Positions 930-38,214 of a stretch of DNA of 64,000 nucleotides are shown here, piece by piece. Both the position numbers and the translations under genes were made by a program. The notes beneath the pieces are model-generated. The model was not told the DNA's origin. It searched no databases and saw only the letters and a list, made by a program, of their open reading frames with translations. The stretch is from Pseudovirgaria hyperparasitica. Taxonomy: Eukaryota. Location: assembly GCA_010093815.1 (NCBI GenBank), contig ML996566.1. One strand, given 5' to 3'. Positions within the stretch are counted from its first letter, which is position 1. Every line of letters starts with the position of its first letter.

Positions 930-2581
930 ATGTCTGCCGAGAAGGTCAACCAACTCTTCTGGCTCAACTACGGCCAAGCTATCAAAGACAAAGCCGGAGC
1001 GAACTTTGGTTCCACAGGGGTCTTCTTCCTTGCCTCCGAGACTCAGAAAGGACCTCTGGCTGGCAATGATGTCCTGGATGTATACACCAACAGGGGTATC
1101 TATGATGTGGGCAACAACTTGCTCGCAACCGACAACCTCTTCTACACCCCATCGAGCCTTCACGGTTATGTGGAAGCACTCTCCACGTGAGTAAAATCCC
1201 ATCAAGCACTGCTAGCCAAGTACATTTTGCTAACGAGCATAGATTCCTCTGGTGGGTGGATCTCGTAAGTGGACAGCCCCTATCCAAGCACATGAATCAT
1301 CCCAGCCAACTGACGACGACAGGGCGGCAAATCCAACGTGAACCTCGACTCAGCAGAGCGACAGGCCCTGCTCGACCTCGACGCGTCGCAGAAGTGGCAG
1401 CTAACGGAGATGCGCAAGGCCGCAGCCCAGTTCAAGGAGGAGAAAGAGCTGGGCCTCGTCCCGACTGGTGACTTCTACGACTGGGTGCAGAACGGCAATG
1501 CCACGGCCTACAGCGCCGCCGTGAAGGACGTCAAGGACAAAGGCCAGGCTCTCGCCATGATCCAGGGTCAAAAGGCCGGGCCCATGTCCCCAGCACGCGA
1601 CGCTGATCTGTCTAAACTGACAAAGGCCCTCGACCAGTCCAAGGACTACCCCGGGTAAGCATCTATCTTATCCTCCCCTCGAGCAAACCCCGCCCCCGGC
1701 CGTCTGCTGACACTCACCTAGCTTCAACTTCGCATCCGCCATGGGCAACCCGCCCAACCCGGCCGAGCTCATCCGGAAGCAGAAGTCCGGCGAGAAAGTG
1801 CCGGACCCGCCAACGTCGCGCATCCCGGTGTACAACGCGCCACTATACAAGAAGGCGGTGCAGGACGCCATGCAGTATGCCATTGACTCGAAGCACGAGC
1901 CCAAGAACTCCGTTGGCATCGAGATCGACCTGGGCAAGAGCACGTCCGACTTCCACTTCGGCCACACGCAGGGCGGCGCATCCGTCGACGTCAGCTACGG
2001 CGGCTGGTTCAGCTTCAGTGCGAATGCGTCCCACGAGGAGGAGTCGCAGACGCTGGATACGCATGACGAGGGCTCCGAGGTGAGCGTCAAGCTGCTGTAC
2101 GACACTATCGAGAAGGTGCCCATCAGCACAGGCGACTGGTAAGTTTCTTTTCTCTCACGAGATCCCCGGCCCCCTCTCCTTTCCCCTCCTTTGCCACGTG
2201 CTGACACAACTCTTTCAAACCAGGCAAATCGACGTGTCCAAGTACAAGCTGCGCGACGACGCGCCCAAGGACACCAGGACGCTGGCCAAGGTCAACGAGA
2301 TGGTCATCGTGACCTATCTGGGCTACGAAATCACCGTCGGCACCAAGACGGCCAGCAGCCTCGACACCAAGTTCAAGCAGACCACGTCGGCCGGCGGCAG
2401 CGTCCGCGTGTTTGGCATCCCCATCGGCCTGGGTGGCAGTGGCAGCTCGACCGAGGAGCACAACACGCACGTGGCCAGCTGGGACAATGCGAAGAAGACG
2501 TTCAGGGTCCTCCCGGCGCCGGACAATGGGTTTGCAACCATTATCGGCGTGATCGGTGAGAAGTTTACGCTTGCTACCTGA
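930..2581 (+). CDS. Uncharacterised 461-aa protein, candidate beta-pore-forming protein; exons 930-1186, 1243-1264, 1323-1654, 1722-2138, 2224-2581
   Basis: Four introns with GTRAG donors, CTRAC branch sites and YAG acceptors join four ORF-track fragments in frame (1386 nt). Strong C/G third-position bias. No signal peptide. Function is inferred only. Confidence 0.85.
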
Positions 2582-36196: not shown

Positions 36197-37691
36197 TTAT
36201 TTCTTAGCTGCTCCGGCCTTTATGAGCAAGATATCTCCGTCCTGAACAACGTAGTCCTTGCCCTTGGTCAAGATCTTGCCCTTCGCCTTGACTGTAGCTT
36301 CATCCCCTTCTTCTTTCAAAACACTATAGTTATATACTATAGCCTGAATGAATGTCTTTTCAAAGTCGCCATGAATCACGCCAGCAGCTTGGGGTGCCTT
36401 CGTACCGTTCCTAATGGTCCATTGTCGTACTTCATCTGCACCAGTGGTGAAGAAGCTTCCTAGGTGCAATGCCTTCCTCATAGTCGTGATGACCTTGGGT
36501 AACGCTGGCGTTGCGCCAATTCTCTCGAGCTCCGCGGTTACTTCAGCTTCGGTCTCAAACTTGCTAAGACGTTTTTCTAGTTCAACAGAGATGGGCAAGA
36601 TCGGGTCGCCGGCGGCATGATCCACTGTCCATTTTTGAATTTCCTTGAGATACTTATTTTTTTTGCGAAGATAGTCCTTCTCGCTCATGTTCAGTAGGTA
36701 GACGACAGGTTTCGCGGATAGGAGGAAGAGAGGATTGATGACCTCAACCTAGAGTACCAATTAACAATCGTCCGGCAGCGCATGCTGACTTGAACAACGT
36801 TTGCAGTGCTTCGTTCAGACAGGGACATCTTTTCATAATAACCTCTTTGCGTTGTATATAATGAGGCATTCAAAGAGCTGGGATTATAGAGCAAATGCTC
36901 TTTGTCATCAGTTGAAAGGAGATTTGGGGCATGAAGAACCAAAGATCAAGTACCTCTTTCGGAGTCCAGTCGCCCTTCCGCACATCCTTGCCATCTTTCA
37001 ACCAAGCAAGGATCTTTTCAACGGTAGCTTCCTCCTCTTTAAGTTTCTTCATCTCCAGACTTTGGCCGCCGCGCCGTGTCTGCTTCTTGAGATTCTCAAG
37101 TGCCTTCTCAGAGAACTCGATGTCTTTGATTCGTAGCTCATCAGCGATAATGTCCAGATCACGAACAGGTTCAACGTCGCCTTGTACGTGTATGATACTT
37201 TTATCGTCGAAGCAACGAACGACCTGAAAGATAGCATCTACAGCGCGTATGTGAGACAAGAATGCATTACCAAGACCTTCTCCGGTGGATGCACCCTTGA
37301 CGAGACCAGCAATATCATAAATGGTAAGGTGGGCAGGAACCCTGGACTTGGGGTTATATTTGTCGCACAGCCAATCGTATCTGTCATCTGGTACTATGAC
37401 ACGGGACTCTTCTGGATCAATGGTGGCATAAGGGTAGTTCTTTGCGCAATTAGCTCAATGGTCAGGACGTTAGGAAGAGTCTGACGAACGTTGGGATTAC
37501 CAAGAGAACATTTTGTGATGGCTTGAAAGAGCGTCGATTTACCAACATTGGCAAGACCCACCTGGGTAGGTGTCAGTTTCGTTACTACAACACAGACTGC
37601 AGTGCCTCCTACATACTAGACCAGTCTTTAGGTTGTTGCCAGGTCGTCCGAGAAGAACCTTATCCTCGGCTTGGCGTTTCTTTGGGGGCAT
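36197..37691 (-). CDS. OLA1: Obg-like ATPase 1 / YchF; exons 37691-37617, 37561-37490, 37439-36954, 36748-36197
   Basis: GLANVGKS P-loop, YPYATIDP, DIAGL, NMSE variant of NKxD, and TGS-domain text KAPQAAGVIHGDFEKTFI...DGDI. Confidence 0.96.
36810..36916 (-). ncRNA. Intronic box C/D snoRNA, snR69-like, with a second snR38-like guide
   Basis: Lies in the 205-nt OLA1 intron 3. C box TGATGA at 36910-36905; guide TATAATCCCAGCTCT then D' TTGA at 36873-36870; C'-like TGAAAA; guide GATGTCCCTGT then D box CTGA at 36818-36815. Both guides are complementary to conserved LSU rRNA segments. Confidence 0.8.
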
Positions 37692-38214
37692 TTTCCTTTT
37701 GGTATAGAATCGGATGATAAGCGGGGTGATGGAGAAGGTACAAATATGAGTCCTCAAATAAGGAAGCTGAGGAGTAGATGCAGACCTTGCTGCTATATGA
37801 AAAAAGCTGGGTATCTGAGAAAAGAAGATAGGATTAGAAACAATTGAAGCCGTCGTGGCGACTGGGGCTCGAGGAATAACTCGAGCGCAATGTCAGGTTG
37901 TGGTCTGCAGCTGTTGACACAGCTGCAGTTTTTCATCTGGTGTGCTGTGTGTAAGATGGATTTTCATTTAAGGAGCAGTGACCCTCCCTCGGCCTCTCAT
38001 CGGGTTGCAGCGCGCCACAACAAGTGAGGCTGAAGGTCCCTTGTTGCCTTCTACAAGGAAGCACATTACGTCAAGGAAGATTGGCCTTCCATTGCTCGGG
38101 ATGGTGTTTGTCGCGTGTCTACACTATTGTTCTTCTACACCATAAGGAGAAATATTCGATCAGCGACGCCATAGGTGCATACTTGCAATCTCAAGTCAAT
38201 ACATACTCGCTAGC

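Follow-up and report, generated by a model that had tools for sequence, protein, structure and literature searches.

Introduction

Yeast snR69 is an independent gene and is not carried in an intron. Two intron-encoded box C/D snoRNAs of filamentous fungi are among the known systems closest to the locus described here. The first, Afu-304 of Aspergillus fumigatus, was recovered by Jochl et al. (2008, PMC2377427) as two cDNA clones of 106 nt and gave a northern band of approximately 95 nt; the entry for this RNA places it in sense orientation in intron 2 of Afu1g09800 and lists a single predicted target, Cm2925 of the 26S rRNA, and a separate snoRNA, Afu-328, is entered for Gm2792. The second is CD27 of Neurospora crassa, listed by Liu et al. 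(2009, PMC2780460) as a homologue of snR69/snR71 that uses box D' for Am2904 and Cm2906. In the same list, the snR38 homologue CD23 also uses box D', for Gm2773, and guide lengths run from 10/0 to 16/0.

Two further reports bear on the question of how many sites one such RNA can contact. In a passage of van Nues et al. (2011, PMC3116282), snR69 is given as the one yeast snoRNA whose extra rRNA complementarity adjoins a D or D' box. Canzler, Stadler and Schor (2018, PMC5824354) describe, in the section relevant here, fungal box C/D families that gained lineage-specific second targets.

The locus analysed here lies in a 64,000-nt stretch of Pseudovirgaria hyperparasitica DNA (contig ML996566.1, assembly GCA_010093815.1), called the window below. 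Judged by its sequence, the 205-nt OLA1 intron in the window holds a box C/D snoRNA of the known, curated and cloned family Afu_304/snR69. This RNA resembles Afu-304 in its box order, its D' guide core, its sense intronic site in a protein-coding host, and its predicted target, the same C of the 3' portion of 26S rRNA. It differs in three respects: the host intron is numbered second in A. fumigatus and is the third of the gene in the window; the stretch adjoining box D reads gaaauCCuauC in the Afu_304 model consensus and GAUGUCCCUGU in the window; and a second target, which the published record for Afu-304 does not give in the part that covers this RNA, can be proposed here.

Results

The host gene and its long intron

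The snoRNA lies in the third intron of a four-exon gene on the minus strand (Table 1). In profile searches, exon 3 (36954-37439) matched positions 32-187 of the TIGR00092 profile (YchF, redox-regulated ATPase), and exon 4 (36200-36748) matched positions 189-366 together with Pfam PF06071 (YchF-GTPase_C), the TIGR00092 profile running on contiguously across the exons that border intron 3. We take OLA1 to be the eukaryotic name for YchF. In view of the Rfam match, Afu1g09800, the host of Afu-304, is presumably the OLA1 orthologue; a literature search on the function of Afu1g09800 returned nothing usable.

Direct reading of the minus strand places the start of the intron, GTACTT, at 36953 and its end, CTCTAG, at 36749. 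Its 205 nt are approximately four times the length of either upstream OLA1 intron; these two measure 55 nt (37616-37562) and 50 nt (37489-37440). Logan contigs from two runs, X3 and X4 (one contig each, approximately 1.45-1.5 kb), lacked exactly 205, 50 and 55 nt, and the skipped segments had CT..AC ends on the plus strand, equivalent to GT..AG in the direction of the gene. The contigs of the DNA-type runs X1 and X2 were continuous through the introns. X3 and X4 represent one sample, from a study that differs from that of the likely source sample, and their contigs are transcript-like; among the listed runs holding OLA1 sequence, none is on record as RNA. Because the X3 and X4 contigs skip exactly these bases, the 205-nt intron is real and spliced, and with sister introns of 55 and 50 nt it is indeed much longer than its neighbours, as the sequence-only reading had stated. 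The intron sequence itself is absent from the X3 and X4 contigs, which are therefore uninformative on a mature small RNA.

Table 1. Coordinates of the host gene, the intron and the elements of the snoRNA in the window.
Feature	Position	Strand	Remarks
Host gene YchF/OLA1	36197..37693	-	four exons; introns 55, 50, 205 nt; Pfam PF06071 + PF01926, NCBIfam TIGR00092
Intron 3 of the YchF/OLA1 gene	36749..36953	-	205 nt, GT..AG; snoRNA host
Box C/D snoRNA, Rfam Afu_304 / snR69 member	36812..36915	-	RF01511 53.6 bits, full model 1-107
Box C TGATGA	36905..36910	-	direct reading; GATGA columns invariant in 60 aligned orthologues
Hairpin AGAGC-AUUU-GCUCU, box C to D' guide	36888..36901	-	RNAfold stem of at least 4 bp in 60/61 orthologues
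D' guide AUAAUCCCAGCUCU	36874..36887	-	core CCCAGCUC at 36882-36875; +5 base 36878
Box D' TTGA	36870..36873	-	TCGA or TTGA in most relatives
Internal hairpin GCCUC ... GAGGU, D' to C'	36841..36867	-	stem of at least 4 bp in 60/61 orthologues
Degenerate box C' TGAAAA(GA)	36828..36835	-	direct reading; C'-like TGAAAA 36835-36830
D-adjacent stretch GAUGUCCCUGU	36819..36829	-	pairing bases 36827-36819; +5 base 36823
Box D CTGA	36815..36818	-	direct reading; invariant in 60 aligned orthologues

A member of the Afu_304/snR69 family

An Rfam scan of the 64-kb window returned one snoRNA match: RF01511 (Afu_304) aligned over its full length to 36915-36812 and scored 53.6 bits, well over the gathering score of 35 (E = 2.9e-06 with all 64 kb searched). 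The same stretch reached 27.3 bits with RF00475 (snosnR69), under the gathering score of 50 for that model, which marks a difference from yeast snR69. The C, D', C'-like and D boxes were all located in that order, with a spacer of 10-11 nt between box C' and box D. The proposal of a box C/D snoRNA in this intron, made from the letters alone, is thus borne out both by its boxes and by the covariance model. Its description as hidden has to be dropped, and the RNA is not new: it corresponds to Rfam Afu_304, cloned in 2008 from A. fumigatus, and of 80 related OLA1 loci, 75 have it in the same intron. We regard it as very probably the local copy of intron-encoded Afu_304, the filamentous-fungus counterpart of yeast snR69.

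Conservation in orthologous OLA1 introns

Relatives were gathered by a metagenome scan with exon 4, which yielded 80 OLA1 loci whose product is 69-80% identical to that of the window. The snoRNA was present in the same intron at 75 of them (73 complete, and two, L004 and L039, cut by a contig end). Four loci (L013, L027, L033 and L059) have exons 3 and 4 joined without an intron and may be transcript-derived contigs, and one (L031) is cut at the intron itself. Every related metagenome locus that shows OLA1 intron 3 therefore carries the snoRNA there.

Identical snoRNAs were collapsed from 74 to 61 distinct sequences, the window included, and 60 of these were aligned with MAFFT; the sequence of L061/L062, which has a long insertion, was omitted from the alignment and retained in the per-sequence counts. 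Four elements are invariant among the 60 aligned sequences: GATGA in box C, CCCAGCTC in the core of the guide, the TG that opens box C', and box D. For the D' guide, the core CCCAGCUC is likewise unchanged in 60 of 60. In box C', the A following the TG is nearly invariant, relatives having TGAGAT, TGAGAG or TGAAAA, and the alignment columns that precede box D are not conserved (n = 60). The five bases after the D' core, counted over all 61 sequences, are GTCGA in 20, TTTGA in 13, TTCGA in 13, GTTGA in 9 and others in 6.

Folded one by one with RNAfold, 60 of the 61 distinct orthologues form the hairpin between box C and the D' guide, for which 17 stem variants were counted, and 60 of 61 also form the hairpin between D' and C', again with differing stem sequences. 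RNAalifold applied to the MAFFT alignment returned zero consensus pairs, the loops of unequal length being misaligned there.

Twenty loci spanning the variants were scored with both Rfam models, and 16 reached a gathering score at the position of the snoRNA: 10 with Afu_304 only, 5 with snosnR69 only, and 1 with both. That the intron RNA of 5 relatives passes the snR69 gathering score alone, and that of 1 relative passes both, is a point of likeness to yeast snR69. Because the same intron RNA scores as either family depending on lineage, this result indicates that RF01511 (Afu_304) and RF00475 (snosnR69) form one orthologous group.

The placement of the snoRNA within the intron is also kept. 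Orthologous introns have a median length of 204.5 nt (range 184-252, 58 of 60 measured). Box C lies 43 nt from the 5' splice site in the window, with a family median of 43, and box D lies 66 nt from the 3' splice site, with a family range of 62-81. Distances of this kind fit an intronic snoRNA whose release depends on splicing.

The D' guide and the snR69-type target

Targets were assessed on L119, whose fungal-type LSU is complete, contains a group I intron and comes from another source than the species' own rRNA. It was obtained by searching with a 20-nt LSU primer, which led to 40 eukaryotic LSU fragments sitting in prokaryote assemblies; among viral contigs the primer gave no match.

The D' core CCCAGCUC pairs with LSU GAGCUGGG, and the register CCCAGCUC-U-UUGA puts G36878 at +5, facing the C of GAGC. 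In L119, the best LSU duplex of the D' guide is found at GAGCUGGGUUUA, with -17.5 kcal/mol; it is short, consisting of 8 Watson-Crick pairs, a U-U mismatch and 3 further pairs. The sequence GAGCTGGGTTTAGA was found in 26 of 30 eukaryotic LSU fragments of sufficient length.

Compared with yeast snR69, the D' guide core is AACCCAGCUCU in the model and AAUCCCAGCUCU in the window, with the same +5 target; facing the first U that follows GGG, the window guide presents a U, whereas the yeast-type guide has an A that pairs there. N. crassa CD27 resembles the window RNA as an intron-encoded box C/D snoRNA and snR69 homologue that uses box D', and differs in that its entry (PMC2780460) predicts two neighbouring sites from one element, whereas no second D' register is evident in the window.

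The sequence-only reading had described the D' guide as snR69-type and aimed at the C of GAGCUGGG, and this assignment stands: the best LSU duplex falls there, the core is invariant in 60 of 60, and Afu-304 has been assigned Cm2925. We hold with high confidence that the RNA is an snR69/Afu_304 orthologue predicted to guide methylation of this C.

In L119, the +5 bases of the two proposed guides, D' and D-adjacent, are 133 nt apart. The same distance separates Gm2792 from Cm2925 in A. fumigatus and Gm2773 from Cm2906 in N. crassa. Because this spacing equals that of the published site pairs, the two site assignments made earlier are right. Both target sites presumably lie in the peptidyl-transferase part of domain V.

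The D-adjacent stretch and the snR38-type site

The bases UGUCCCUGU pair over 9 bp (1 G-U) with LSU ACAGGGAUA in L119, beginning at the base flush with box D, and the +5 base, 36823, stands opposite the second G of ACAGGGAUA (GGG), the snR38-type site. ACAGGGAUA is also the best LSU duplex of UGUCCCUGU, at -13.8 kcal/mol, with runners-up at -13.0 and -12.5. In register, the window agrees with the known snR38-type RNAs (yeast snR38, Afu-328, CD23 and C. elegans ceN61): complementarity to ACAGGGAUAAC adjoins box D with the second G at +5, and UGUCCCUGU-CUGA corresponds to GUUAUCCCUGU-CUGA in the ceN61 consensus.

The window also differs from the snR38-type RNAs. Two of the 11 guide positions differ in the window, giving one G-U and one mismatch. 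The complementarity extends over 9 pairs including the G-U and then meets a mismatch, as against 10 or more in the N. crassa list, and the window element precedes box D of an snR69-type RNA, whereas CD23 is entered as using box D' (PMC2780460). Of curated snR38-type models, only ceN61 (RF01647) aligned, with 14.7 bits (E = 4.3) where its gathering score is 60; the match is not significant.

Across the family, the complementarity is confined to the window. Ranked among LSU windows, the snR38 site falls at percentile 0.002 for the window and at a family median of 0.335, and a percentile of 0.02 or less at this site was reached by 1 of the 61 distinct orthologues, namely the window itself. The closest relatives among these loci (78-80% exon-4 identity) have ACAUCCUAU or GAAACCCGUU in place of the D-adjacent stretch, and the snoRNA most similar overall, that of L023 (71% identity), has AAAUCCUCGU before box D. 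Among the 61 distinct orthologues, the candidate second guide is thus seen in this genome only, the relatives in this comparison having at most 80% exon-4 identity.

To gauge chance, the same 11 nt were shuffled 3000 times, and in 488 shuffles a 9-bp match (at most 1 G-U, start position 1 or 2) occurred somewhere in the 3454-nt LSU, with a mean of 0.204 sites per LSU; such a match is present in 4 of the 61 natural sequences. A D-adjacent match of this quality is common; what is unusual, with an estimated chance of about 0.002-0.003, is that it coincides in register with a known site. In this estimate we assumed approximately 37 known LSU methylation sites, as in yeast. Two things raise the figure: the core GUCC(C) is common to many relatives and by itself gives 4-5 of the 9 pairs, and the finding was chosen because of the match.

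The earlier claim of a dual guide divides. In orthologous OLA1 introns the boxes and the D' guide core are kept, and in the window the complementarity to the snR38 site, with the second G at +5, is as described; the D guide occurs in 1 of 61 and is not a property of the family, and the Afu-304 entry gives one target (PMC2377427).

Alternative readings of the D-adjacent stretch

That the D-adjacent stretch is a working methylation guide in this lineage, with one snoRNP acting on the C of GAGCUGGG as well as on the second G of ACAGGGAUA, appears unlikely, though not to the point of being dismissed; the accompanying idea, that it would duplicate or take over the role of a separate snR38-type snoRNA, is similarly doubtful. 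Nine contiguous pairs with 1 G-U, starting at the base that adjoins box D, set a known site at +5; the duplex is the best that the stretch makes with the LSU and ranks in the top 0.2% of LSU windows; and the 133-nt spacing of the two +5 bases is exactly that of the published site pairs. With 0.204 matches per LSU in shuffles, an in-register hit on a known site would be rare, but the shared GUCC(C) core makes chance likelier than this naive figure, and the match is the very reason for which the finding was selected. The pairing is modest in length and stability: nine pairs with a G-U stand below the 10-16 perfect pairs tabulated for N. crassa (PMC2780460), although the conserved D' guide itself works from only 8-9 pairs, and the next LSU sites are almost equally stable. 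Box C' is degenerate, and just 10-11 nt separate it from box D. Canzler et al. (PMC5824354) have described fungal box C/D families whose idle guide region acquired lineage-specific second targets, and what the window shares with those families is a conserved D' target combined, in a single lineage, with a candidate further target ahead of box D; the extra targets described there are conserved clade-wide, whereas here the match belongs to one genome, 1 of 61 distinct orthologues compared at 80% exon-4 identity or less. Separate snR38-type snoRNAs are moreover entered for both A. fumigatus and N. crassa (PMC2377427, PMC2780460).

A tethering role, in which the D-adjacent stretch would hold the snoRNA on nearby pre-rRNA and aid the short D' guide without directing methylation, we consider quite improbable. 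Its partner would be either ACAGGGAUA or AUAGGGAACGU, the latter immediately 5' of the D' target, where the window stretch pairs with -11.1 kcal/mol and one bulge, in the top 3.2%. This role would accord with van Nues et al. (PMC3116282), who count snR69 with the snoRNAs that have additional rRNA complementarity beside the methylated site, and a subgroup of relatives pairs with GACAGGUU, approximately 25 nt 3' of the site (L019, L043, L049, L050 and L051 in the top 0.3-0.4%, L073 at 2.1%). Against it, ACAGGGAUA lies 133 nt from the D' target and not beside it as in the published cases, and the median flank percentiles are unremarkable, at 0.26-0.59. The best LSU site fell within the 245-nt region spanning both sites in 6 of 44 distinct sequences, compared with 3.1 expected, the sequences being related; as a role for the whole family, rRNA tethering was set aside on this weak signal. 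To the reading that the intron holds no functional RNA, and that boxes and complementarities arose in a long intron by chance, we give practically no weight. It is contradicted by an Rfam score well over the gathering score (53.6 vs 35), by the invariance of boxes and guide and the presence of the RNA at 75 of 80 related loci, by two covarying hairpins, and by a homologue that was cloned and gave a northern signal according to its entry (PMC2377427). For the D-adjacent stretch, the probability left over by the second guide and the tether falls to its being idle.

Discussion

The snR69-type assignment of the D' guide leads to the following proposed mechanism. The snoRNA would be transcribed within the OLA1/YchF pre-mRNA and, as is typical for its class, would be freed once the 205-nt intron has been spliced out, its ends being trimmed as far as the protein-bound C/D boxes. 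The invariant D' guide CCCAGCUC would then pair with LSU GAGCUGGG and direct 2'-O-methylation of the C five bases from box D', a nucleotide that would correspond to Cm2925 of A. fumigatus and Cm2906 of N. crassa. Across the Afu_304/snR69 family, the 11-nt segment that separates box C' from box D varies freely, and in this genome it may carry by chance, or may recently have gained, a 9-bp match to the snR38-type site. One observation counts against a view of the RNA as snR69-type alone: the D-adjacent match is in exact register, which argues against a mere spacer.

We remain sceptical, without being dismissive, that an OLA1-hosted snR69-type snoRNA has gained a second working guide, so that one RNP would methylate a pair of nucleotides 133 nt apart in the core of LSU domain V. 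If it has, the RNA would be redundant with, or would replace, the stand-alone snR38-type snoRNA of other filamentous fungi, and it would represent a guide gain caught in the act on the idle half of a single-guide snoRNA. Such a case would show cleanly, on a small scale, how methylation guides come to be redundant near the peptidyl-transferase centre, and it would not constitute a new kind of system: because the gain of second targets has already been described in the relevant part of Canzler et al. (PMC5824354), a dual guide, even if true, would be a variant of a known theme.

What the locus holds beyond this candidate second guide is already known in kind, a member of a curated snoRNA family in the intron where that family usually lies, and its annotation is routine. 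That annotation has useful by-products. The location in an OLA1 intron is documented at 75 loci with tightly kept distances to the splice sites, and Afu_304 and snosnR69, hitherto two Rfam families, are indicated to be one orthologous group. The D-adjacent half of the snoRNA, in turn, evolves freely and would provide raw material for guide gain.

A conserved hairpin in the guide spacer and the Rfam assignment of the snoRNA

Box C/D guide spacers are commonly depicted as unstructured. In 60 of the 61 distinct orthologues of the OLA1 intron snoRNA, a set comprising the window copy and those from the metagenome loci L001–L080, with identical sequences collapsed, box C is followed by a short hairpin ahead of the D' guide (Table). 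Folding of each of the 61 sequences individually yielded 17 different stem sequences, demonstrating clear covariation within the guide spacer. This hairpin may set the effective spacer length.

Twenty loci spanning the observed variants were then compared with Rfam. The same intron RNA reached the gathering score of RF01511 (Afu_304) in some of the sampled lineages and that of RF00475 (snosnR69) in others, and the RNA of locus L075 reached both. Afu_304 and snosnR69 therefore look like a single orthologous family; in Rfam, snosnR69 is placed in clan CL00051 and Afu_304 in no clan. In loci L061 and L062, a longer snoRNA variant of about 124 nt was observed, in which the 5' hairpin is missing and the interval from D' to C' contains an extra hairpin that is long and stable (−29.6 kcal/mol). 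This variant scored below the gathering threshold of every Rfam family.

Table. Coordinates of the RNA features described
Feature	Sequence	Position	Strand	Rfam match
Hairpin between box C and D' guide	window	36888–36901	−	
snoRNA variant	L061 and L062	about 2300–2435		
tRNA gene	window	61242–61324	+	RF00005, 46.3 bits

Predicted pairing with LSU rRNA

The D' guide, which is aimed at a methylated C of LSU rRNA, reads AAUCCCAGCUC in 41 of the 61 distinct orthologues, placing a U opposite the first U 3' of GGG in the rRNA. Because of this U–U opposition, the working duplex may comprise only the 8–9 pairs closest to box D'. At the same guide position (36883 on the minus strand of the window), 18 other distinct orthologues carry an A capable of pairing (TAA in 14, AAA in 4). 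One LSU rRNA fragment, L088, reads GAGCTGGGATTAGACC roughly 150 nt downstream of the primer site, with an A replacing the first T after GGG, a T in all other LSU fragments; perfect pairing is predicted between this sequence and the AAUCCC form of the guide. Since both the L088 record and its sister L110 appear error-rich, this A may be an assembly artefact.

A subgroup of orthologues (L019, L043, L049, L050, L051, and L073) carries AACCUGUU or CUCCUGUU adjoining box D. These stretches are complementary to LSU GACAGGUU, located some 25 nt downstream of the methylated C, with the pairing ranking in the top 0.3–0.4% of LSU windows for the first five loci and at 2.1% for L073. This could represent a lineage-specific accessory pairing or an additional guide.

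Additional observations

The LSU fragments, retrieved with a 20-nt LSU primer, lie within at least 40 prokaryote genome records (L081–L120, filed as bacterial or archaeal assemblies), where eukaryotic rRNA presumably reflects contamination or mis-binning. The LSU of record L119, on a 24-kb contig of a bacterial-labelled MAG, is complete and of fungal type, and it includes a group I intron (RF00028, 109.5 bits). Four related OLA1 loci (L013, L027, L033, and L059) have exons 3 and 4 joined with the intron absent; all are short contigs and may be assembled transcripts, not intron-less genes. Elsewhere in the window, a tRNA gene spans 83 nt against the 71 positions of its model and thus probably contains an intron.
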